Below are positions 894 to 61,133 of a DNA stretch of 64,000 nt, one piece after another. A program made the position numbers and the translations under genes. Within the stretch, counting starts at the first letter, position 1, and each line of letters begins with the position of its first letter. The stretch comes from a virus. Lineage: Duplodnaviria > Caudoviricetes. Where the stretch lies: positions 8,853-72,852 of the IMG/VR virus record IMGVR_UViG_3300037400_003271. The stretch is one strand, 5' to 3'. The notes beneath the pieces were generated by a model. The model was not told where the DNA came from and ran no database searches. It was given only the letters and a program-made list of their open reading frames with translations.

Positions 894-3800
894 ATGGCAG
901 TAGAAATTCCGGTAGTTATTGATATAGACAAGGCGTTTGAGGACGCCGCGAAGAGTGTTGATTCTGCTATCAAGCCACTTCAAAGAAAAATTTCGGCGAA
1001 CACGCTTAAGCTCAAAATTCAAATCGGCGTCGATGACGAAGGGCACGCAGTAACGACTACATTCAAAAAGATTAAGGACGGCTCTATTCACGAGCTTTCC
1101 ACTCTCCAGAACGCCATTTCAAGCGTAAAGATGGCGATGATTTCTGCGGCCGAGGCGGGAGACAAGGCGAAATTCACATCTCTTCTCGAGGCAAAGACCT
1201 ATTTGGAAGATATGGTGAGGGCCTCGGAGGTGCTTCGCCTCGATATGGATGGCATCGCGAAGACAATGGCGGGGCTTAATGCCAGGATGTCTGCCGCAAG
1301 AGAGACATTTGCGAACACCAGAATCAACAGCGCGGACTGGCGTGCGGCCGCGAGGGAGATCCAGAAAGTCACGGCCGAGATGGACAAGGCCCAGCGAAAA
1401 GTCGCAGAAATGGGGACGAAGGCGGGCAGCATCGATCGGCTGAATATGAAAATCAGCGAATTGCGTGACAAGTGGAACGCAATGAGCCGCGCGCAGAAGT
1501 TCGATGCGGACGGGAACTTGAAAGCCTCGGCGAGAAGGGTCGTCGAGCAATACAAGAAGGTTTCAGAGGAGGCGGCCAAATTTGGTCAATCGCTGGAGGC
1601 GACCGCGCGCGGCGCGAACAATGAGACGAAGAAACTCGAGAAGAATGTTCGTAATGTCAACAGAGAACTCGAGCAGTCGGAGTCGAAACTGGCGATGTTG
1701 GTAAAGAACTCTCTTCGCCTGCTCGCCATTCATTCCGCAGGCACGTTTGTCAGAAATATCCGAGAGGTAACGTCCGAGTTCGAACTGCAAAGGGTAGCCC
1801 TCGCGTCAATCATTCAGGACACGGAAAAAGCAGAATCTCTGTTCAAGCAAATCAAGGCTGCTGCGGTGGAGTCTCCGTTCCAGATCAAGGAACTTGTGAC
1901 GTATACAAAGCAGCTCTCCGCGTATCAGATAGAAACAGAGAAACTGTTCGACACGACCCAGAAGCTCGCCGACATTTCCGCCGGTCTCGGCGTTGATATG
2001 GGCCGACTCATCCTGGCTTTTGGACAGGTGCGCGCCGCGGCCGTACTCCGCGGCCAGGAGCTCAGGCAGTTCACGGAAGCCGGCATACCGTTGGTGGAAC
2101 GCCTCGCTGACAAATTCACCGAGCTTAACGGGAGGATCGTGTCTACGTCGGAGGTCTTTGAACTCATATCCAAGCGGGCTGTTCCGTTTGCTATGATCGA
2201 GGAGATCTTCAATGACCTCACCAGCGCTGGCGGCGCCTTCTACCAGATGCAGGAGAAGCAGGCAGAGACGTTGCTCGGCCAGTGGAACAACCTTAAGGAC
2301 TCGATCAGCATTATGTATGACGAGATCGGAAATACAAAGGCGGTTCACTCTGCGATGGAGGGCCTTATTTCCGATGCGAAGAAAATAATGCAGAACTGGA
2401 GGAGCGTAGCCACGATTATTAAGTTTGTCGGGACGCAGTATGTCTTTCTGAAAATTGCCTCGGCGTTTCTCCCGACGCTTACATACAATACGAAGATGCT
2501 CGAGAAGGCCGAGCTTGCCGAAGCGAGAGCGAAGCAACTATCGAACGCTGCGCACAGGTCCGGAAACAAGATCCTTGACATGTCAGCAAAGTCTACCAAG
2601 GCATACGCTTTATACACGCTCAAGGCAGCCAGGTCCGCCACGCAGTTTGGCCGCGCCATAAACGGAATAAAGGCTTTTTTGTCTGGCAACTGGGTTGCGA
2701 TACTCATATCCGCGCTTACCCTGTTGGCAGCCAAGTTCGTTGCTGCGAGGAAAGAAGCGAACAGGCTGAACGAAGAGCTCTCGAAGATAGAAGGGGAAGG
2801 CGTTACGAAAATAGAGCAGTCCATCAGGAATTTCTCCCGGCTCGCGGACGCAGCTGTCAAATCAATAGACGGGACAAAAGAACAGCGCGAGGCCGTTGAT
2901 GAACTCGTTAGGACCTACGGCGACCTGCTTCCTCCGGCCGACAAGGTCGTAGACAAACTGCGTGAGATGAACGGCGAATACAAGGACCTGACAGACGCGA
3001 TCCGGCACAAGATTGACCTTCAGATACAGGAGCAGAAGGTTGAGGAGATTCTCTCGGAGTTCGGCACGAAGATTGGCGGTAAACGGGATTCTCTGAAGAA
3101 GATACTCAAAGAGCAGGGGTTCACCAGCGCGGAGGTCTCCGGGATTATGTCGGAAGTAGAGAGCGCGGTGAAAGAAGGACTCGTATCCACCGAGATGGAT
3201 GTAGCCGCTCAGGCTAAAGCCATCGAGGGTATAATTAAGGACTATACCGGGAAATACATCAAGCTGACGGAATCCGCATACGCGTCTGTCGCCGGCACGA
3301 ACCAGAAGGTTTACCAGGGCGAGCGCTCGACGAAACTTTCAAGGACGTTCTCCGATCTCATCAAGCTCTTCGGCGATATGAACGGGAAGATTCAGGAGGT
3401 CGAGGAATCTATGGAAGATGGCGGTGGCGTGCTCGGGAAATATGCAAAAGAGTGGAAAGACCTCAAGGAGGAGATCTCTCAGATGCCGATGACCGGCGAT
3501 ACGCGGTTCGAGCAGAACGAGTCGAAAATTGAGAACTATGTCAGCAAGGCGGTCTCTTTTATGGAAGAGAAGTTCAGGGCTGCCGAGATCGACGTCTCTG
3601 GCGCGTTTGACGCCAACAAGATCGATTTCGATGTTCTCACGCAGCTCGTCGAAAACATCAAGGACAAGGAGGCGCAGGCTTCCATGCGTACGATCATAAA
3701 AGACTTCAAGAAAGAGTACGACAAGTTGGTTCCAGACGATGTGATCGTAGATTTGGTAAAAAGCAAATTCAAGGAGATCTCGGAGAACACGGGAATATCT

Positions 3801-6632
3801 TTGGATAAGTTCACCTCATACGTCAAGAAGGCTGGAGATGACAACAAGGAGTACATTGAGAATCTCGGAGATAGCATAAAGAAGTTCCGCGACGACGCAG
3901 AGTCTCTGCAGGAGGCGATGAAGATATTCCCCGAATCCGACACAGAGCGAAACCGGAAGAAGGTTAAAGAGTACACCGATATGGCGAACTCGCTCCAGAT
4001 TGTGTACGACTTATTGGTCGGGATAATCAATTTGAACACGAGCGGAGGAGGAACATACAAGCAGGATCCGTTTATCAAGAACATGCAGGACCGCATAAAG
4101 TTTATGCAGGACTTCAAGAAGGGGTATGACAGCCTGAATAAGTACATGACAAGTAGCGGCGCGCTGGCTCGGCAGTTTGACATTATGCAGTCCCGCGGCC
4201 TGTCTATTGGCATTGACCCTGCAGAGCAGAAGCGCGCGGCCGGAGAACTTTCCGCCTGGTATGAAGACGCAATCAACGAAGCCTTTGAAGAGGCAAAGAA
4301 ACACGGCGCGTCTGGTAGCATCACGGCGTTTATGAGCAAGCAGATTGAGGACAATACAAACCGCGGGAAGATGTTGAAGAGCTTCCAGGACCTCATTCAC
4401 TCCCTTTGGGACGCGAAGACCGACTTCGATACCAGTCAGCTCAAGAAGGATCTTGAGGATGCGCTGAAGCGCGTCACAGAAGAGGTGAAGCGGTCAGACA
4501 CGGCTCGAAACTTATTCCAGAACATCCTCGACTTAACCGGAGACGAGGAGGTGTCCAGGAGCATCACGCTAAGCGTTTACGGAGAGCCTGGAGTGGATTT
4601 TAAAGGCTCTCTCCAGAAGCAGCTCGACGCCGCATTTATGTCTCTCGACTGGTCTGAGCTTCCGGATGATATCTGGGGGCAGCTTTCTACGGCCATCGCT
4701 TCGCAGGACTTCGATACAATTATCGGGTATATCGGCCTCTTCCCGACCGCGTGGCAAGATGCCATTAAGCAGATGAAGGCGGATAATGAAAAGTTCAACG
4801 CGAGCTGGGTGTCCGACATTCTCAAAACCTATCAGAAGACAAAGTCTTTCGAGGAAAGAATGACCGACGTGCGAAAGCGTGAGGAGCAGAAGCGCAAAGA
4901 AATCGCCGAGAGCAAAACTCTTGGCGACGAGGAGAAGGCGGCTCTTATTGCGGCCTCCAACAGAAAAGAGGCGGAAGACATTGCTTCTATCCAGGTCGAA
5001 GCACTGAAGGCCACATACGAGTGGACGAAGGCATTCGAAGACCTTGACAGGGTCGGCAACAAGACGCTGACTGGTCTTCGTGATAAAATCGTAGCGCTTA
5101 TAGAGGCGGAGAGCGGCAACCTTACTGCAGAGGAACTCAAGACGCTCCGCCAGGAGCTCGAGAAGATCAACGATGTTCTCGCAGAGAGAGACCCGTTCTC
5201 GGCGATTGTGTCCGGCGGGAACAGAATGCTGCTTATCATGCGGGCAATGAAGCAGAGCAAGGGTACCGAAGCATACTCGGAGGCCATCGCGAAGATTAAG
5301 CAGTTTAACGAGACCGCGAAAGATTCAGACAAGATTGACATCGATCACCTCGAAGACTCCTTCCGGGACGCGAACAAGGATCTCGAGAAGGGAATTAGCG
5401 GCGTGGCAGACTATCTATCTGCTTGGAAGAGCGTGGTCGACACGGTGTCTGATGCGTTCAACCTCGACGAGGTTCCCGTCCTGGGCGAGACGCTTGAAGG
5501 CGTCTCGGATGCCCTGTCTTTCGTCGCGTCCATCCTGCCCGTAATCATCACGCTGAACGGCATCCTGAACGGGACCCTGATGATGAACCCGATCATCGCC
5601 GCTGGCGCTGGCATTGTCGCTATTGTCGGGGCGATTGTCGGCCTCGTGAAGGGCCTCGTGAACGCAAAGGTGGAGCGACTGAACAAAAAGATAGAGGAAC
5701 AGGAGAAACTGATTGACAGCCTCGAGCGGTCGTATGACCGCCTCGATTCTGCGATCGAGAAAGCCTTCGGCTCCGACTACATCTACAACTACACGAAGCA
5801 GCTTGAGATCCTCGCCGCGAAGCAGGCCGCCTACGAGGAGCAGGCCCGCCTTGAGAGCGAGAAGGGCAAGAAGGCGGACAAGGACAAGATCGAGGACTAC
5901 ACGAACGCGGCTCGGGACGCTGAAGACGCCATTGCGGATATGAAGGGCCAGCTCGCCGAGTTCTTCACGGATACCGATGTAACGTCGGCGGCAACGGAAT
6001 TCGCGACCGCGTGGATTGACGCGTACAAGGAGTTCGGAAGCACGACTGACGCCATGAAGGAGAAGTTCAACGATATGGTCCAGTCAATGATCACGAAGTC
6101 TCTTGCCGCGAAGATAATGCAGTCCGTACTGCAGCCGCTCTTCGACCAGATCGACGAGATGGCCCAGTCCGGCGGCGAGCTCTCCGCACAGGAGATCGCC
6201 CAGATTGCTAACCTCGCCCCGGAGTACATCAACCAGATCAGCGACGCGATGAACTCGCTAATGGCACAGATGTCTGCAGCTGGGTATAACCTGCGACAGC
6301 GGGTTGGAGGTTTCACCGGCATCAAGCGCGACATCGCCAACGCCAGCGAGGAGTCCATTAACGGGCTGGCTACTGGAATCAACACGCAGAACTTCTATAT
6401 GCAGCTGATCAGCCAGAACGTGGCGGCCATCCTTGCCGTATTGACCGGCAGCGCGGAGGTCTCCGGCCCCGCGGGCGCCGCGGCCGTCACGGACCCGTAC
6501 AAGGACCAGATGCTGCAGTATGTCAGCGCGCTTCCGCAGATGCGCGACGACATAGCCGCGATGCGTTCGATGTGGGAGAAGGTAATCCGGCCTAACGGCA
6601 CGAGCGCTACGCATTATGTGTCTACGAGATAA
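894..6632 (+). CDS. tail tape measure protein
   Basis: 1912 aa, helical Ala/Lys/Glu-rich; tape-measure-like segment (GLGVDMGRLILAFGQVRAAAVLRGQELRQFTEAGIP); hydrophobic stretches. Confidence 0.9.
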   Translation: MAVEIPVVIDIDKAFEDAAKSVDSAIKPLQRKISANTLKLKIQIGVDDEGHAVTTTFKKIKDGSIHELSTLQNAISSVKMAMISAAEAGDKAKFTSLLEAKTYLEDMVRASEVLRLDMDGIAKTMAGLNARMSAARETFANTRINSADWRAAAREIQKVTAEMDKAQRKVAEMGTKAGSIDRLNMKISELRDKWNAMSRAQKFDADGNLKASARRVVEQYKKVSEEAAKFGQSLEATARGANNETKKLEKNVRNVNRELEQSESKLAMLVKNSLRLLAIHSAGTFVRNIREVTSEFELQRVALASIIQDTEKAESLFKQIKAAAVESPFQIKELVTYTKQLSAYQIETEKLFDTTQKLADISAGLGVDMGRLILAFGQVRAAAVLRGQELRQFTEAGIPLVERLADKFTELNGRIVSTSEVFELISKRAVPFAMIEEIFNDLTSAGGAFYQMQEKQAETLLGQWNNLKDSISIMYDEIGNTKAVHSAMEGLISDAKKIMQNWRSVATIIKFVGTQYVFLKIASAFLPTLTYNTKMLEKAELAEARAKQLSNAAHRSGNKILDMSAKSTKAYALYTLKAARSATQFGRAINGIKAFLSGNWVAILISALTLLAAKFVAARKEANRLNEELSKIEGEGVTKIEQSIRNFSRLADAAVKSIDGTKEQREAVDELVRTYGDLLPPADKVVDKLREMNGEYKDLTDAIRHKIDLQIQEQKVEEILSEFGTKIGGKRDSLKKILKEQGFTSAEVSGIMSEVESAVKEGLVSTEMDVAAQAKAIEGIIKDYTGKYIKLTESAYASVAGTNQKVYQGERSTKLSRTFSDLIKLFGDMNGKIQEVEESMEDGGGVLGKYAKEWKDLKEEISQMPMTGDTRFEQNESKIENYVSKAVSFMEEKFRAAEIDVSGAFDANKIDFDVLTQLVENIKDKEAQASMRTIIKDFKKEYDKLVPDDVIVDLVKSKFKEISENTGISLDKFTSYVKKAGDDNKEYIENLGDSIKKFRDDAESLQEAMKIFPESDTERNRKKVKEYTDMANSLQIVYDLLVGIINLNTSGGGTYKQDPFIKNMQDRIKFMQDFKKGYDSLNKYMTSSGALARQFDIMQSRGLSIGIDPAEQKRAAGELSAWYEDAINEAFEEAKKHGASGSITAFMSKQIEDNTNRGKMLKSFQDLIHSLWDAKTDFDTSQLKKDLEDALKRVTEEVKRSDTARNLFQNILDLTGDEEVSRSITLSVYGEPGVDFKGSLQKQLDAAFMSLDWSELPDDIWGQLSTAIASQDFDTIIGYIGLFPTAWQDAIKQMKADNEKFNASWVSDILKTYQKTKSFEERMTDVRKREEQKRKEIAESKTLGDEEKAALIAASNRKEAEDIASIQVEALKATYEWTKAFEDLDRVGNKTLTGLRDKIVALIEAESGNLTAEELKTLRQELEKINDVLAERDPFSAIVSGGNRMLLIMRAMKQSKGTEAYSEAIAKIKQFNETAKDSDKIDIDHLEDSFRDANKDLEKGISGVADYLSAWKSVVDTVSDAFNLDEVPVLGETLEGVSDALSFVASILPVIITLNGILNGTLMMNPIIAAGAGIVAIVGAIVGLVKGLVNAKVERLNKKIEEQEKLIDSLERSYDRLDSAIEKAFGSDYIYNYTKQLEILAAKQAAYEEQARLESEKGKKADKDKIEDYTNAARDAEDAIADMKGQLAEFFTDTDVTSAATEFATAWIDAYKEFGSTTDAMKEKFNDMVQSMITKSLAAKIMQSVLQPLFDQIDEMAQSGGELSAQEIAQIANLAPEYINQISDAMNSLMAQMSAAGYNLRQRVGGFTGIKRDIANASEESINGLATGINTQNFYMQLISQNVAAILAVLTGSAEVSGPAGAAAVTDPYKDQMLQYVSALPQMRDDIAAMRSMWEKVIRPNGTSATHYVSTR

Positions 6633-48913: not shown

Positions 48914-49266
48914 TGCGGTTCAGGGAATTCTATGTGGTCGCCACCGACGTGGAAACCGGATTCGAGGAGTGGTTCCGGACCCTCAAGCAGGCCGGCGCTG
49001 CGTGCGGCGCCAGCGACGACGGGATAGAGCGCGCGATCCGCTTCGGCCGGACCATCCTGTACTGGCGCTTCAGGAAAGCGCACGTGCGCTACCTGATCGT
49101 CAGCCGCACCGGACAGGAGGTCGTCTGCAGGTACGATCCGGAAAGGAAGGTGCTCGTCAGCGTCGACGGCGGCATCGAGTTTGGGAAAAGGCAGTACAGG
49201 AGCTGCGAGGAACTGATAGTTGAAAAAGATGGGAGTCTTCAGCGTAGACAGGCCGGAACGGCGTAA
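48910..49266 (+). CDS. NUMOD1-like HTH protein, paralogue C2
   Basis: MMRFREF start in ATGA overlap; DVETG..EWFRTLKQAGAACGASDDGIERAI. Confidence 0.65.
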   Translation: MMRFREFYVVATDVETGFEEWFRTLKQAGAACGASDDGIERAIRFGRTILYWRFRKAHVRYLIVSRTGQEVVCRYDPERKVLVSVDGGIEFGKRQYRSCEELIVEKDGSLQRRQAGTA

Positions 49267-49720
49267 GAAGGTGCCGGGCTACGGCGGCCGCTACGAGGTG
49301 AGCGACCTCGGGCGGGTGTACTCGGGCGGGTTCGAGCTGACGCCCGTGCTCGGTCGGTACGTGTACCTGCACGACAGGGGGCAGGCGGACCGCGCGTCCG
49401 TGTGCTACCTGGTGGCGAGGGCCTTCGTGCCCAACCCGGAAGGGCGGCCCTTCGTGCGGCACCGGAACGGTATGGCCGGGGACAACCGGGCCGAGAACCT
49501 GGAGTGGGTGGAGGCGAAGGAGCGCTGCGGCCAGCCCGTCGGCCGGAAGGGCGTCTGCAGGAGTGTGGTGGCGTACGACCGGGAGACCGGCGAGTTCGTC
49601 GGAAAGTGGGACAGCGTGAAAAATGCGTCCGAGGCGCTGGATGTGGCACGGTGTTTGATACGTAACTGCGCAGAGGGAAGAGCGAGGAGGGCGAAAGGAT
49701 ACGTGTTCAGATATGTATAA
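49229..49720 (+). CDS. NUMOD4-HNH-NUMOD1 protein
   Basis: KVPGYGGRYEVSDLGRV; VRHRNGMAGDNRAENLEW; AYDRETGEFVGKWDSVKNAS. Confidence 0.8.
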   Translation: MGVFSVDRPERRKKVPGYGGRYEVSDLGRVYSGGFELTPVLGRYVYLHDRGQADRASVCYLVARAFVPNPEGRPFVRHRNGMAGDNRAENLEWVEAKERCGQPVGRKGVCRSVVAYDRETGEFVGKWDSVKNASEALDVARCLIRNCAEGRARRAKGYVFRYV

Positions 49721-49892
49721 AGAAAAAGGAACAGGAAGAAGCAAGGAAGAGGCCCGCAGGCGGGCTGAGGAGGCGCTGAAGGAGCGTCTCTGGAGAGAGT
49801 GCTGGAAGGAGGCGATCGAGGTGCCGCGGGATGCTGTCGAGCATGTGGTGGCGATCGAGGGTGGACTTTTCGAAGTAACTATAGAGATATGA
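49713..49892 (+). CDS. small hypothetical protein (59 aa)
   Basis: MYKEKGTGRSKEEA...; ATGA-coupled to MazG gene. Confidence 0.5.
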   Translation: MYKEKGTGRSKEEARRRAEEALKERLWRECWKEAIEVPRDAVEHVVAIEGGLFEVTIEI

Positions 49893-50215
49893 TTTCATTG
49901 GATGATTTTCAGCGGGGCGCTCTGGAGACGGCCGTCTATCCGGAGCAGCATCGGGTGATCTACCCGGCCCTTGGTCTCGCGGGCGAGGCCGGCGAAGTGG
50001 CGGACAAGGTAAAGAAGGTCCTGAGGGGCGACGGCCCGCTGGACGAGGAGCGGAAGAAGGCGATAGCGCAGGAGATCGGCGACGTGCTGTGGTACTGCGC
50101 GGTGCTGGCCAGCGACCTCGGGTTCGGCCTCGAGGAGATCGGGTCGATGAACTACGCGAAGCTGCACAGCCGGAAGGAGCGCGGGATGCTCGGAGGGGAC
50201 GGAGATGATAGATAG
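49889..50215 (+). CDS. mazG: MazG-like nucleoside triphosphate pyrophosphohydrolase
   Basis: LGLAGEAGEVADKVKK...EIGDVLWY...NYAKLHSR. Confidence 0.85.
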   Translation: MISLDDFQRGALETAVYPEQHRVIYPALGLAGEAGEVADKVKKVLRGDGPLDEERKKAIAQEIGDVLWYCAVLASDLGFGLEEIGSMNYAKLHSRKERGMLGGDGDDR

Positions 50216-50670: not shown

Positions 50671-50752
50671 AGTGTGGTAGCTCAGTGGACAGAGCGCCGC
50701 CCCAAGCGCATGGGGATCAACGGAGACGCGGGTTCGAATCCCGTCCACGCAC
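50671..50752 (+). tRNA. tRNA-like RNA with expanded (27-nt) anticodon arm; no assignable anticodon
   Basis: acceptor GTGTGG/CCACGC, D arm GCTC/GAGC with GG, T arm GCGGG-TTCGAAT-CCCGT. Confidence 0.75.
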
Positions 50753-50770: not shown

Positions 50771-51124
50771 GGGGCTGGTTTGGTTTAGACTTGCATGAGG
50801 CAGGTACTGACTTACGCACTGGGCGGTGATCCCAGTTGAATAAAGCACCGAAAACACAAAAGGCAAGAATTTCATCAGCAGGATGGCGGGCAAGGCTCGT
50901 GCTCTGCGCGAAAAGGTCGCCGGGATCTTCGCTCCCCGCGAGATTGAAGAGTTCGCTCTGGCGATTGCCTAATTTCTCGGCTTAGGAAAACCGAGTGGTG
51001 GAGATGGGCAGTGAACTTCTGTCCTGACCGTCCTGGAGCCGGACAAAAATGGCTATCCTAAGCGTATGAACAAAGTCAGTATGGGCACATGTATAGGACG
51101 AGGGTTCGACTCCCTCCAGCTCCA
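50771..51124 (+). ncRNA. ssrA: tmRNA
   Basis: GGGGCTG/CAGCTCC-A acceptor with G3.U70; T arm GAGGG-TTCGACT-CCCTC; helix 2; pk1 (ACTGGG/CCCAGT, CGGTG/CACCG); tag frame 50862-50972 ending FALAIA*. Confidence 0.93.
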
Positions 51125-51329
51125 CAAAGGCAGTGAGGTATGCCCTATAGGGAACAACATTGGACTTGCCGTACAATAGTGCTTAGGAATCAAGTGCTAT
51201 GCCCAATGCCCGAAGAACCTGGTAGCGCAGGTCGCTGCAAACATATCGTCCCGCCGTGAGGCGCGAGCGCAGGCGCGAGTACATAGTGTCTTAGTGTATT
51301 AGTTCCCCGGGCCGCCTGACCGGGATTCT

Positions 51330-51401
51330 GGGAGGGTAGCTCAGAGGTAGAGCGGGCGCCGAGGGGCGCGAAGGCCGGCGGTCCGAATCCGCCCCCTTCC
51401 A
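51330..51401 (+). tRNA. tRNA-like RNA with Ala acceptor identity and mispaired anticodon arm
   Basis: GGGAGGG/CCCTTCC-A; D arm GCTC/GAGC; T arm GGCGG-TCCGAAT-CCGCC. Confidence 0.75.
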
Positions 51402-51819: not shown

Positions 51820-53283
51820 TTGAGCAAGAAGAATGATGTCATAGACTACCTCATTTCGGTCCTGGAGCCGGAGATTTCCGGCAAGGGGGCGACTGACGGC
51901 AAATTGGACAAGCTCAAGGAGGCAGAGCTCTGCGACGCCTTCGAGAGTTATGTCTGTGGCAGGCCGGACGATACGGGGTGCGACTTTTTCAAGGTCGCGG
52001 AGGGTGATGTCTTGTTCATGTTCAACGGGAAGTGGTACGAGAAGATTGACGATGTGCGCCTGCGCTTCATCGTGAAGGAGGTGCTTAGGAAATGCCACGT
52101 GGGTTCGATCTATATCCGTAACTCTGCGTCGAAGATCGCCGACGAGTGCAAGGAGACGCTCCTTTCATGCGAATGGTGTTTCTTCGAGCCGGACCGCAGG
52201 TATGTGGTGTTCCGGAACGGTGTTCTGGATATGGAGACGAGGCGCTTTTATGAACACGACATCAAGTACAAGACGGACATAGTCCTGAATTTCAACTACC
52301 TATCGAACGAGAGGAGCGGCCTGTGGGACCGTCTCATCTCGCAGACGGTTCCGGACGAGGGTATGCGCGGCGCGATGCAGCAGTTCTGCGGCGCCATGCT
52401 CGCGGACCGGAAGAAGTTCAAGATCGAGTACATGCTGATGCTGGTCGGTAGCGGCCGGAATGGCAAGTCGGTGGTTACCGACGCCATCGCGAACGTGTTC
52501 GGAGACGATCTGGTGAGTTCGTACAGCCCGGAGCAGCTCTTCGGGAACACGGGCCATAGCCTGTACAACCTCGCGGACATCAACGGAAAGTTGGCGAACA
52601 TCTGCGACGATCTGAAGAACAAGGAATTCTCCGGAGGCGAGTTCAAGCAATTCATCTCCGGGCACAAGTTCCAGGCGCGGCACATCTACGGCCGCCCGTT
52701 CGTGGTCAGCAAGATCCCTCTGATGGTGTGCTGCATGAACGAGATTCCTCCGACCACGGACGATACTATGGGCCACTACCGCCGGCTCCTGCCGATCCTC
52801 TGCCCGAACCAGGTGGCGGAGAAGGACGTGGACTACGAGCTGTCGGACAAGTTGGCGACGGATGACAACAAGGCGGCCATCTTCAACTGGCTCCTCGACG
52901 GCTACAAGGCGTTCGTGGAGAACAAGGGCCGCATCGAAATCAGCGACAGCATCAAGAATATCCGCGAGGACATCAAGGCCGACGCGAACTCCGCCCGGCA
53001 GTGGATCCGAGAGATGGGATACACTCCCGTCGCCGTGCGCGATCCGAACGACCCTCGCTGGAAGCCTATCAACGAGTGGATGCGCGAGTACATCGATTGG
53101 TGCCGCGAGTGCTCCGAGAACGCGAAGACGGCCAAGGCAGTCGGCTCCGTGCTGAAGGACCTCGGGTTTGCCAGCGAGAAGCGCAGGAGCACCACTTGGT
53201 ATTGCATCGGGAGGAAGGCCGAAGAGAATGTTGTGTCTACCGACCTCCCCGGCGAGGATGGTAAGGACGATCTTCCGTTCTGA
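51820..53283 (+). CDS. D5/P4-type SF3 primase-associated helicase
   Basis: YVVFRNGVLD; Walker A GSGRNGKS; LANICDD; FKQFISG; RRLLPILC; TTG start. Confidence 0.85.
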   Translation: MSKKNDVIDYLISVLEPEISGKGATDGKLDKLKEAELCDAFESYVCGRPDDTGCDFFKVAEGDVLFMFNGKWYEKIDDVRLRFIVKEVLRKCHVGSIYIRNSASKIADECKETLLSCEWCFFEPDRRYVVFRNGVLDMETRRFYEHDIKYKTDIVLNFNYLSNERSGLWDRLISQTVPDEGMRGAMQQFCGAMLADRKKFKIEYMLMLVGSGRNGKSVVTDAIANVFGDDLVSSYSPEQLFGNTGHSLYNLADINGKLANICDDLKNKEFSGGEFKQFISGHKFQARHIYGRPFVVSKIPLMVCCMNEIPPTTDDTMGHYRRLLPILCPNQVAEKDVDYELSDKLATDDNKAAIFNWLLDGYKAFVENKGRIEISDSIKNIREDIKADANSARQWIREMGYTPVAVRDPNDPRWKPINEWMREYIDWCRECSENAKTAKAVGSVLKDLGFASEKRRSTTWYCIGRKAEENVVSTDLPGEDGKDDLPF

Positions 53284-57779: not shown

Positions 57780-57897
57780 GTCGGAGTAGCTCAGATGGTA
57801 AGAGCGGCAGAGGGAGGGTTGCGATATTCCCGAAGTGGAAGCATAAATCCCGATAGGCCCGTTTCTGTAGACGCCGGTTCGAGTCCGGCCTCCGGCT
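57780..57897 (+). tRNA. tRNA-shaped RNA with a 52-nt insert replacing the anticodon loop
   Basis: 7-bp acceptor GTCGGAG/CTCCGGC; D arm; anticodon stem GCAGA/TCTGT; T arm GCCGG-TTCGAGT-CCGGC. Confidence 0.85.
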
Positions 57898-57898
57898 C

Positions 57899-59380
57899 AT
57901 GGAATTACGGAAATACCAACAGACGCTGATTGACGAGGCCAGAACAGCCCTGTCGAGACACAAGCACATCATCGTACAGTCCCCAACCGGAAGTGGGAAA
58001 GGCGTCTTGATCGGTTCAATGGCCTCTATGTCTCGATATAGGGTCCTAATTCTCGCGCACAGCGAGGAGATATTGAGCCAGGACGCCGGCCACGCAAGGA
58101 AGTGGGGGATCGATGCTGCTGAGGTTCTCGCGAAGACGAGGAAGCTGCCCGACGCGAAGTGCTGCGTGATGATGGCGCAGACGCTCCGGCAACGCCTCAA
58201 GAAGGAGGACTGGTCGGCCTGGTTCGACTCCTTCGGTTTCATCATCCTGGACGAGTGCCATCGCGCCGAGATGGATTTCATCTTCGAGCGGCCCGGCGTC
58301 GATAGTACCTTTGTCGTCGGCCTGTCCGCTTCGCCGGCCAGATATGGCCAGATGCGCCAGTTCGGTCTTGACTACGGCGCCGTCGTGATCGGGCCGCAGG
58401 TAAAGGAACTGATTGCCGGCGGATACCTGTGCCGCTGCCGCCTGTTCTCTCTTGACGCGCCGTCCCTCACGGACGTGGAGTGGTCGTACGGCCGCGGAGA
58501 CTACAACCTCTCGCAGATGGCCGCGAAGTTCAAGTCTCGCGCCCGCTATGTCGGCGCCGTCGAGAACTACAAGAGGATCTGCCCTGGCGAGAAATGCCTC
58601 GTTTTTTGCTGCTCGAGCGAGCAGACGATAGAAGTTACCAAGGCGTTCTGCGAGGCCGGAATTGACGCGCGCTATTGCCTCTCTGGAGACTTTGACGAGG
58701 ACGAGGAATACAGCGGCGACCGCAAGGACGTCGTCGACGCGTTCGCGCGCGGAGATTTTCAGGTTCTGGTGAATTTTGGCCTGTTCACGACGGGCGTGGA
58801 TATACCAGACATTAAGGTCGTGATGCTGATGTTCTCGACTATGTCTCTTGTGAAGTATCTGCAGTGTCTCGGCCGCGCCAGTCGGCCGGCGCCAGGGAAA
58901 AATGGCGAGTTCATATGTCTGGACTTCGGCCGCAACTACGAGCGGCTGGGCCGGTACGAGGATGATCGCGAGTGGTCTGTCTGGCATAACACCGGCGCCG
59001 GCGGTGGTCCGGCACCCGTGAAGGAATGCCCGCAGTGCCACAAGCTGGTGCCTGTATCCTGGACCGATTGCCAGTTCTGCGGGTATCATTGGCCCAGCAA
59101 GCAGGAGACATATGTTGCGGACCTGCAGGAGATAGCGGCCAAAAACGAGTTTGAAACCGTCGAGGGATATGTGTCCAGAATGAAACTGCTCGGAAAGAAC
59201 ACGAACTGGATCCTCGTGAACGTGTGCCTCAGGAACGATACCGATATGAAGGGGGCGTTTATGAAGGCCGCAAAGGTCCTTGGGTTGAAGCCTACGTATT
59301 GGAAATTTTTTAAAATGAACATTCTCGACAAGGCCAAGGTTAAGCAAAAAGACGGTACTTGCGGGCCAGGCCTCTTCTGA
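57899..59380 (+). CDS. SF2 (DEAD/DEAH-like) helicase with C-terminal zinc finger
   Basis: QSPTGSGKG, ILDECHRA, GLSASP, TGVDIP, QCLGRASR, CPQC...CQFC. Confidence 0.9.
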   Translation: MELRKYQQTLIDEARTALSRHKHIIVQSPTGSGKGVLIGSMASMSRYRVLILAHSEEILSQDAGHARKWGIDAAEVLAKTRKLPDAKCCVMMAQTLRQRLKKEDWSAWFDSFGFIILDECHRAEMDFIFERPGVDSTFVVGLSASPARYGQMRQFGLDYGAVVIGPQVKELIAGGYLCRCRLFSLDAPSLTDVEWSYGRGDYNLSQMAAKFKSRARYVGAVENYKRICPGEKCLVFCCSSEQTIEVTKAFCEAGIDARYCLSGDFDEDEEYSGDRKDVVDAFARGDFQVLVNFGLFTTGVDIPDIKVVMLMFSTMSLVKYLQCLGRASRPAPGKNGEFICLDFGRNYERLGRYEDDREWSVWHNTGAGGGPAPVKECPQCHKLVPVSWTDCQFCGYHWPSKQETYVADLQEIAAKNEFETVEGYVSRMKLLGKNTNWILVNVCLRNDTDMKGAFMKAAKVLGLKPTYWKFFKMNILDKAKVKQKDGTCGPGLF

Positions 59381-59939: not shown

Positions 59940-61133
59940 ATGATTGAGATTAAGAGAAATATCGGCTCTCCGGTGAAGGTTTTCGCCGAGACTTTCGAGT
60001 ACGAGGCTTACGACCAGGTGAAGGCGCTGGCCAACTATTCTCCCTATGCTGATTCGACCATCCGGATTATGCCGGACGCACATGCCGGCAAGGGCTGCAC
60101 TATCGGCACCACGATGACTCTGCACGGAAAGGTCACGCCGAATCTTGTGGGCGTGGACATCGGATGCGGTATGCTCGTGGCGGAACTCGGTTCAAGGATT
60201 CGCCCGGACTTCGCCAAGCTGGATGCGGCTATCAAGGCTGGCATCCCGTCCGGCTTCGGAATCCACGAGTCTCCGGTCGTCAAGTTCCCGATGCTTGACC
60301 TGCTCCGCTGTGGTCATGCCGTCGATCTGTCCCGTGCCGCCTGCTCCATTGGCTCGCTCGGTGGCGGGAATCACTTCATCGAGCTGGACGTGAACGAGGA
60401 GACCGGCGGGTATTACCTTGTCATCCACTCCGGCTCCAGGAACCTCGGCGTGCAGGTCTGCAAGTATTATCAGGACCTCGCCTACAAGAAACTGAATGAG
60501 ACCGGAGCGGCCAAGAATGAAATCGTCAAGAGACTGAAGGCTGAGGGCCGTGAGAAAGATATTCAGACTGAGCTGAAAAAGTTCCAGAAGCCACCGTGCA
60601 ATAAGGAGCTGGCCCATCTCGATGGCGCTGACTTCGATGACTACATCGCCGACATGAGGATCGTGCAGCGGTATGCTTCCGTGAATCGCTCTACGATGGC
60701 CGGGTTTATCCTGACCGCTATGGGGTGGAATCCGAAGGGCTACTTCGAGACCATCCACAACTACATCGACACCGACGCGATGATACTTCGCAAGGGGGCG
60801 GTCCGCGCTAATGCCGGCGAGAAGCTCATTATCCCGATGAATATGCGTGACGGCTCGCTGATCTGCGTCGGCAAGGGTAATCCGGACTGGAACTACTCGG
60901 CCCCGCACGGCGCCGGCCGACTGATGTCCCGTGCTAAGGCGAAGGAGACGCTTTCGCTGGATGAGTTCAAGAGCACGATGTCCGGTATCTATTCGACCAC
61001 CGTCGGCAAAGGGACCATCGACGAGTCGCCGATGGCTTACAAGCCGATGGATGAGATTATCCGGTGCATCGAGCCTACGGCCAAGGTGTCGGAGATTATC
61101 AAGCCTGTTTATAATTTTAAGGCCGGAGAGTAG
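59940..61133 (+). CDS. rtcB: RtcB-family RNA 2',3'-cyclic phosphate/3'-phosphate-5'-OH ligase
   Basis: MPDAHAGKG, VGVDIGCG, GSLGGGNHFIE, HSGSR, HNY, RKGA, PHGAGR, ESPMAYK. Confidence 0.95.
   Translation: MIEIKRNIGSPVKVFAETFEYEAYDQVKALANYSPYADSTIRIMPDAHAGKGCTIGTTMTLHGKVTPNLVGVDIGCGMLVAELGSRIRPDFAKLDAAIKAGIPSGFGIHESPVVKFPMLDLLRCGHAVDLSRAACSIGSLGGGNHFIELDVNEETGGYYLVIHSGSRNLGVQVCKYYQDLAYKKLNETGAAKNEIVKRLKAEGREKDIQTELKKFQKPPCNKELAHLDGADFDDYIADMRIVQRYASVNRSTMAGFILTAMGWNPKGYFETIHNYIDTDAMILRKGAVRANAGEKLIIPMNMRDGSLICVGKGNPDWNYSAPHGAGRLMSRAKAKETLSLDEFKSTMSGIYSTTVGKGTIDESPMAYKPMDEIIRCIEPTAKVSEIIKPVYNFKAGE

Follow-up and report, generated by a model that had tools for sequence, protein, structure and literature searches.

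A phage tmRNA family with tag frames of 29 to 36 codons that run through a helix-5-like hairpin

The 64,000-nucleotide stretch of phage DNA analysed here (the window) contains a complete, one-piece tmRNA gene with a tag frame of 36 codons, and relatives of this gene with frames of 29 to 36 codons form a family that has been found on phage contigs only. It is probable, in our judgement, that this is a working phage tmRNA that uses the SmpB of its host, and that its tag consists of an ordinary start, a linker in which a hairpin is read through to give a helical peptide, and a degron. The tags of tmRNAs are usually regarded as degradation signals of about ten residues, and a family with tags of 29 to 36 codons, found in ruminant-gut metagenomes of many studies, goes undetected by the program that is most often used to annotate tmRNA.

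The gene matches the full length of the Rfam tmRNA model RF00023 (model positions 1-374, + strand) with a score of 67.9 bits against a gathering score of 47. This bears out the first-pass annotation, which had recognised a phage tmRNA from the letters alone and had put forward Rfam and ARAGORN scans as checks. The parts of the gene are as follows.

50771-51127, + strand: whole one-piece tmRNA gene, 357 nt (Rfam RF00023, full model)
50771-50777, + strand: 5' strand of the acceptor stem, pairing with 51117-51123 and carrying G3 of G3:U70
50792-50797, 50804-50811 and 50813-50817, + strand: 5' strands of helix 2, with partners at 51088-51093, 51075-51082 and 51062-51066
50819-50850, + strand: pseudoknot 1 (PK1, H-type), stems 50819-50823/50831-50835 and 50824-50828/50846-50850
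50851-50861, + strand: single-stranded spacer of 11 nt, with A at -4 from the resume codon
50862-50972, + strand: tag frame of 36 codons plus TAA, resume codon GGC, stop at 50970-50972
50878-50907, + strand: helix-5-like hairpin within the tag frame, codons 6-16, with the loop AAG as codon 11
50946-50969, + strand: last 8 tag codons, a nonpolar, alanine-rich, degron-like end
50976-50995, + strand: hairpin 4 nt past the stop, 100% paired, with two doubly changed pairs
51006-51054, + strand: hairpin 51006-51024 and small H-type pseudoknot 51030-51054, 91-100% paired, both stems of the pseudoknot having doubly changed pairs
51100-51124, + strand: T arm 51100-51116, 3' strand of the acceptor stem 51117-51123, discriminator A at 51124

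An explicit structure made up of the acceptor stem, the T arm, three helix-2 segments, PK1, two hairpins and the small pseudoknot was imposed on an alignment of six tmRNAs (alignment A2). In this structure 96.9% of the cells are paired and 15 pairs have changed on both sides; none of 500 shuffles reaches these values and slid controls pair at 30-46%. The tmRNA is under structural selection at the RNA level. The third acceptor pair is G:U in all six aligned rows, and together with the A at 51124 this confirms the G3.U70 and A73 described at first sight. Compensatory changes are found at acceptor pairs 5 and 7 in the relatives and four of the five pairs of the T stem have double changes, with five compensatory pairs in the acceptor stem and T arm together, and three pairs in the middle segment of helix 2 have likewise changed on both sides. 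Both stems of PK1 are 100% paired in six sequences, two of the stem-1 pairs being doubly changed; the pseudoknot itself was rightly seen in the first-pass annotation, its start needing correction from 50818 to 50819.

Two features of the gene depart from a standard SsrA. The CCA is not encoded, as A-C-A-A comes after the acceptor stem, and in place of PK2-PK4 the stretch from the tag to helix 2 has just two hairpins and a single small pseudoknot. The downstream region had been called compact from the sequence, and it is, with all three of its elements covarying. The missing PK2-PK4 does not exclude the gene from the tmRNAs because the downstream pseudoknots are dispensable in E. coli (PMC2481249). 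In two of the relatives (L059 and L061) the counterpart of the hairpin at 50976-50995 is one stem of a full pseudoknot, insertions of 19 nt and 10 nt adding the second stem. ARAGORN missed the tmRNA of every family member; in the window it called none and reported only two odd tRNA-like genes beside the gene, so that this second check came out negative. Tag length as the cause of the miss was considered and rejected, since the gene was still undetected with its tag cut in silico to as few as 21 codons.

Six further sequences were obtained by probing collections with non-tag blocks and with a codon-degenerate version of the tag end. Identity to the window tmRNA is 96% for L055, 83% for L060, 77% for L064 (a complete 49-kb phage; RF00023 73.5 bits), and 75% for L071 (72.2 bits) and for L059 and L061, which are nearly the same as each other; in L003/L054/L063 the copy is cut off by the contig end. 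The relatives score between 54.8 and 73.5 bits against RF00023. Family members come from ruminant-gut phage contigs and all seven adjoin phage replication genes. The gene order of the window (endonuclease, small ORF, tmRNA, primase) is common to L055, L059 and L071, the tmRNA of L064 lies between a Gp2.5-like SSB and a DNA polymerase, and that of L061 is next to tRNAs, RecT and a DnaD-like loader. Because these neighbourhoods differ, the family is present in at least three phage backbones. The tag-core pattern gave no further members in IMG/VR and the 5'-end probe had no matches, and four metagenome matches to a 20-nt probe (L056, L057, L058 and L062) were discarded as chance, as they fall within protein genes.

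Two comparisons between contigs touch on the mobility of the gene. Positions 1-372 of L059 and 6590-6962 of L061 have 2 differences within the tag frame, yet their neighbours are different: L059 has the upstream genes of the window, and in L061 the gene leads on to two tRNAs, RecT and the DnaD-like loader, which suggests that the tmRNA may have been exchanged recently between phage backbones. Furthermore, a 67-kb contig (L004, IMGVR_UViG_2061766007_000968) with the same gene order and a primase 82% identical is without a tmRNA between the small ORF and the primase (3583-4001), only a tRNA-shaped element standing in its place. Given this contig, the tmRNA would seem to be dispensable, or to have been gained or lost recently.

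Resumption of translation at GGC 50862 is supported by the signals around that codon. In all seven members a GGC follows PK1 by 10-12 nt, and the spacing in the window is exactly the 11 nt from which the first-pass annotation had placed the resume codon. The base at -4 is A and the base before it a pyrimidine, both invariant; in E. coli the resume frame is set mainly by A86, which lies at -4 (PMC2481249). The Rfam consensus resume codon also falls on GGC 50862 with high posterior probability, for the window as for L071.

The frame that begins at this codon was described at the outset as 36 codons with a stop at 50970-50972, and the translation agrees. It is open in seven of seven members (36, 36, 36, 36, 36, 34 and 29 codons), even in relatives with only 75% nucleotide identity. 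Within the frame the indels are limited to 6 nt (L064) and 21 nt (L071), both multiples of three; those in the flanks are single bases in the spacer, and 19, 10, 14, 3 and 2 nt directly past the stop. Taken over its full length the frame has a dN/dS of 0.26-0.45 in five of six pairs, compared with 0.5-1.1 and 1.3-2.3 in the other two frames, and the variable columns by codon position are 15, 12 and 22 of 34. The stop alternates between TAA and TAG among near-identical relatives and RNA-library variants, and these variants otherwise have synonymous or single conservative changes. The +1 frame, whose end (NFSA) had been read correctly and which had been named as the frame that could overturn this reading, is open, but it is rejected because its end is unconserved and its dN/dS lies at about 1 or above. 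Nowhere else in the window is there a reading frame that imitates the tag or has a tag-like tail end.

The two ends of the tag are under unequal constraint. Over the last 8 codons dN/dS is 0.22 in the tag frame, against 2.14 and 1.13 in the other frames, Phe31, Ala32, Ala34 and Ala36 are invariant, and where L003, L059 and L061 differ, the change is at the third codon position and synonymous. Strong selection on the peptide is clear for these 8 codons only. A selected C-terminal tail of this kind argues for a working degron, so that tagged proteins would still be degraded, rather than for escape from degradation. Over the first 21 codons dN/dS is 0.68 in the tag frame against 0.60 in the next frame and 0.98 in the third, and the frame of this part is not distinguishable by dN/dS; it rests on the open frame, the in-frame indels and the position of the resume signals. 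A frame-specific signal is missing here because an RNA hairpin lies inside the frame.

The hairpin (50878-50907) pairs frame bases 17-21 with 42-46 and 25-30 with 34-39. In the alignment used for it (A6) 97% of the cells are paired, with 100% in the inner helix, three pairs are doubly changed and the covariation score is reached by none of 500 shuffles. RNAalifold run over the whole tag gave a weak covariation term, and the hairpin surfaced only when tested explicitly. Helix 5 of the Rfam model aligns to it at moderate posterior probability in the window, the alignment of L071 being unreliable at this point, and with moderate confidence the hairpin may be regarded as the equivalent of helix 5. 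Its loop is the invariant AAG that encodes Lys11, the invariant codons of Leu15 and Arg16 form its 3' strand, and the joint replacement of Gly10 by Asp and Ala12 by Val in L059 and L071 reflects a compensatory change of both bases in a single pair. Most of the "conserved residues" of the insert are thus explained by the RNA, because they coincide with the loop and stem of the hairpin, and it should be borne in mind for other tmRNAs that residues which seem conserved in a tag may be conserved for RNA structure and not for the peptide.

In a canonical tmRNA the 5' strand of helix 5 is made up of the final codons of the tag, whose stop codon lies in the loop of this helix. The loop of the Rfam consensus helix 5 contains UAA; in the family the hairpin at this position begins five codons past the resume codon and has a sense codon, codon 11, in its loop, the stop of the window tag coming 25 codons beyond it. 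The most frequent tag length is ten residues (PMC11915505). By analogy with the standard architecture the extra length most likely arose by loss of a stop: an ancestral tag of 10 codons would have ended in the hairpin loop, at a stop that then changed to AAG, and this single change in the loop would have extended reading into the former PK2 region and on to a second degron. Such an origin fits a whole RNA that does not exceed the usual length (357 nt) and has little pseudoknot structure left downstream. Among the family members obtained there was no relative with a stop in the hairpin loop.

From these data the following course of events may be proposed for the preferred reading. The tmRNA would be excised from an island of RNA genes and receive its CCA from the CCA-adding enzyme of the host, host AlaRS would charge it with alanine by way of G3:U70 and A73, and host SmpB would deliver it to stalled ribosomes, where translation would resume at GGC 50862 and continue for 36 codons to TAA 50970. 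The tag would begin with an ordinary Gly-Lys-Asn, continue with about 20 codons that serve in the RNA as the helix-5-like hairpin and give a loosely constrained peptide, predicted to be helical and basic, and finish with an ordinary nonpolar, alanine-rich end as degradation signal. The benefit to the phage would be added ribosome-rescue capacity during infection, with the extension acting mainly as a linker. Of this scheme, the charging, the reliance on host SmpB, the origin by stop loss and the role as a linker are steps that we infer. The first-pass annotation saw no smpB in the window, and the same holds for the complete 72,852-bp phage record, in which the SmpB domain (PF01668) has no match.

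On present evidence the extension would be a tolerated, loosely constrained helical linker, although the keeping of the long form in at least three backbones could mean that it is useful in itself. It had been proposed at the outset that a basic, amphipathic-helix-like segment of about 25 residues is inserted to reroute rescued proteins or to spare them degradation. The insert is indeed basic (net charge +3) and AlphaFold models the tag peptide as a single helix at moderate confidence (mean pLDDT 72), but in hydrophobic moment the insert does not exceed shuffled sequence, so that the amphipathic part of the description is not borne out. A purpose-built insert is not supported, since selection is seen on the degron end, the insert shows none that is specific to its frame and its invariant residues belong to the RNA hairpin.

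The broad form of that proposal, in which the helical insert of 20-27 residues would be a phage-specific module altering the fate of proteins rescued in infection through a phage or host factor or another protease or compartment, is an unlikely one, but it deserves attention because, were it true, the module would be one case of a wider, undescribed phage habit of long tmRNA tags, overlooked as ARAGORN-based annotation misses them. We are doubtful too of the more specific form, a functional peptide module with a basic helix that docks tagged proteins to an adaptor, to a protease (as with the Mycoplasma tag and Lon) or to the membrane. In its favour the long form has been kept in at least three backbones across more than 25% nucleotide divergence with its length held at 29-36 codons, positions 4, 8, 15, 19 and 22 stay hydrophobic in the relatives, the predicted fold is one helix, and Asn3 is retained through synonymous codons. 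Against it, the hairpin accounts for Lys11, Leu15 and Arg16 and for the paired changes at residues 10 and 12, as described above, codons 1-21 are without frame-specific purifying selection, and codons 17-23 are the most variable of the tag, with 7 codons (alignment columns 22-28) absent from L071 in the stretch that separates the hairpin from the C-terminal end. The analysis identified no partner protein, and the ESM Atlas returned only sub-threshold hypothetical clusters.

It is quite improbable that the real tag is short, which would require translation to resume inside the frame, at a codon close to the degron, and would leave the initial two thirds as a spacer that contains a hairpin and is not translated. 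In favour of a short tag, strong coding selection is confined to the 3' end, the 5' part has a conserved RNA hairpin, and the last nine residues of L071 alone resemble a complete Bacteroidales-type tag starting with Gly. However, no internal codon has a conserved A at -4 in all members, and GGC 50862 is the codon to which the resume signals, the distance of 10-12 nt from PK1 in the family and the alignment to the Rfam model all point. The indels between hairpin and degron are all multiples of three, there is no stop in the seven sequences, and codons 2-5 change mostly at third positions.

That the gene is a recently captured host ssrA, the host having the same long tag, is very unlikely indeed. 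The gene agrees with Bacteroidales-type tmRNAs over its first 20 nt and last 30 nt and in its GGC resume codon, but the middle 300 nt cannot be aligned with the Bacteroidales-type genes, which have 9-residue tags, and seven of seven family members adjoin phage replication genes. In exact-pattern scans of 185,579 species (one bacterial or archaeal genome each) there were no matches to the codon-degenerate tag end, nor were there any in the same 185,579 genomes to two non-tag blocks that are invariant in A2. A long tag in the host had been named beforehand as a finding that would make this a captured host gene, and these scans speak against it. An untranslated decoy that titrates host SmpB or blocks host trans-translation, for which there is a precedent in the tRNA-like-domain-only gene of mycobacteriophage DS6A and its proposed role as a decoy against host trans-translation (PMC4131195) and which would suit the absence of a phage smpB, is just as improbable in view of the full mRNA-like domain, the conserved frame and resume signals, and the mostly synonymous substitutions in the last 8 codons.

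The preferred reading, a working tmRNA with an extended tag, places the family beside several known systems. With the Bacteroidales-type SsrA (RF00023) it shares the G3:U70/A73 tRNA-like domain, helix 2, PK1, a GGC resume codon that lies about 11 nt beyond PK1 and has an A at -4, a tag that starts with Gly and has a nonpolar, alanine-rich tail, and identical first 20 nt and last 30 nt. It differs in having tags of 29-36 codons, compared with 9 among the Bacteroidales-type genes obtained, in the sense codon in place of a stop in the loop of the hairpin at the helix-5 position, and in being found only on phage contigs and missed by ARAGORN.

Phage tmRNAs are already known (PMC4131195), and about 2.3% of phage genomes have one by ARAGORN detection (PMC9004378, the Methylophage paper). 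Those of the mycobacteriophage Bxz1 group, of Bacillus phage G and of the marine phage Melnitz, a two-piece form, are like the present gene in being complete tmRNAs in an early or replication region without smpB, and the role proposed for them is to keep the hijacked translation machinery running (PMC4131195, PMC9004378). The phage tags called by ARAGORN on 39 contigs in this work are 9-15 residues long, against 29-36 in the family. A tag range of 8-35 residues has been quoted (PMC11431127) and the 36 codons of the window tag are one above it.

A long tag is also known in Mycoplasma, an organism without ClpXP in which the tag belongs to the cell, and this extended tag is said, on the strength of work by Ge and Karzai in 2009 that PMC11986505 cites, to have co-evolved with Lon. 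Both tags are far longer than ten residues and in both extra determinants may lie upstream of the C-terminal end; here, however, the tag is that of a phage whose probable hosts have ordinary short tags, and there is no evidence linking the family tag to Lon. What is new in the variant is a length at or just above the quoted maximum, the read-through of a helix-5-like hairpin, its presence on phage DNA only and its being unseen by ARAGORN. The family offers a natural test case for the ways in which a tag frame can lengthen, as by loss of the helix-5 loop stop, for the extent to which an mRNA-like domain can take the place of the pseudoknot region, and for the question whether phages change what becomes of rescued proteins.

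The window covers bases 8853-72852 of a 72,852-bp IMG/VR record that has direct terminal repeats and is rated complete (~72.9 kb). The tmRNA gene sits at the beginning of the rightward replication arm, which is laid out as follows.

49220-49720, same arm as the tmRNA: HNH/NUMOD homing-type endonuclease
49799-50215, same arm as the tmRNA: MazG pyrophosphohydrolase, followed by a small ORF and then by a ~1.3-kb RNA island with the tmRNA and tRNA-shaped elements
50671-50752, + strand: tRNA-shaped element (Rfam tRNA 41.1 bits; anticodon undetermined in ARAGORN), 18 nt upstream of the tmRNA
51820-53283: P4-type primase, followed by DUF6371 and a YqaJ-like exonuclease
57899-59380: helicase, rightward replication arm
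59940-61133: RtcB RNA ligase (PHROG 1075, E 6e-133), followed by VRR-NUC

The element just upstream of the tmRNA is a probable processing signal for it. Altogether there are three tRNA-shaped elements (50671-50752, 51330-51401 and 57780-57897), all of which score as Rfam tRNA; for two ARAGORN gives an undetermined or two-base "anticodon", and in one the anticodon region contains an insert of 52 nt. The tmRNA has one of these elements on either side, and one runs up to the start of the helicase gene. Together with RtcB and MazG nearby, the tRNA look-alikes would fit a phage that anticipates damage to host RNA; for the rescue on toxin-cleaved mRNA suggested at first sight they provide context only. 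The scan for sigma-70 promoters and terminators gave nothing usable.

The primase of the window has 260 homologues. The nearest cultured phages are at 28% identity by primase and at 55% by RtcB, their hosts being Parabacteroides, Bacteroides and Phocaeicola, and the sequence of the window is contained in bovine, goat and sheep gut metagenomes from many studies. Because the cultured primase and RtcB relatives infect Bacteroidales genera and the sequence occurs in ruminant-gut metagenomes, a Bacteroidales host in the rumen is likely.

Four RNA libraries from four studies have contigs that extend over the body of the tmRNA (50788-51086 in one example) and differ from it at few positions; this is a weak hint that the tmRNA is expressed, as these are assembled contigs into which DNA may have been carried over. 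The high depth at 51096-51126 comes from other tmRNAs with the same 3' end, and the absence of RNA-contig cover downstream of 51130 was not counted as evidence. Contigs of two of the RNA runs (X14 and X19), one at a depth of 211, match only helix 2 and the start of PK1 (window 50784-50821 and 51047-51093) and have 217-237 other letters between them, so that they represent related tmRNAs of similar size with a different middle.

Finally, some observations were made outside the family's own tmRNA genes. Positions 4441-4517 of L055 match the type-P5 twister ribozyme at 43.9 bits against a gathering score of 37.6. The 39 viral IMG/VR contigs mentioned above (among L005-L052) have tmRNA genes with an identical 30-nt 3' end; according to ARAGORN 36 of them have the circularly permuted, two-piece form, their tags being 10-15 residues long and falling into a few recurring types, and the other three are of the standard Bacteroidales type with 9-residue tags. 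This set may be a large group of phage-borne permuted tmRNAs. The annotated SsrA of the crAss-like phage cr10_1 (MT774382.1, 1442-1827; L065) fits the standard Rfam model partially, at 18.7 bits, has the same 3' end over 32 nt and is probably of the permuted kind.
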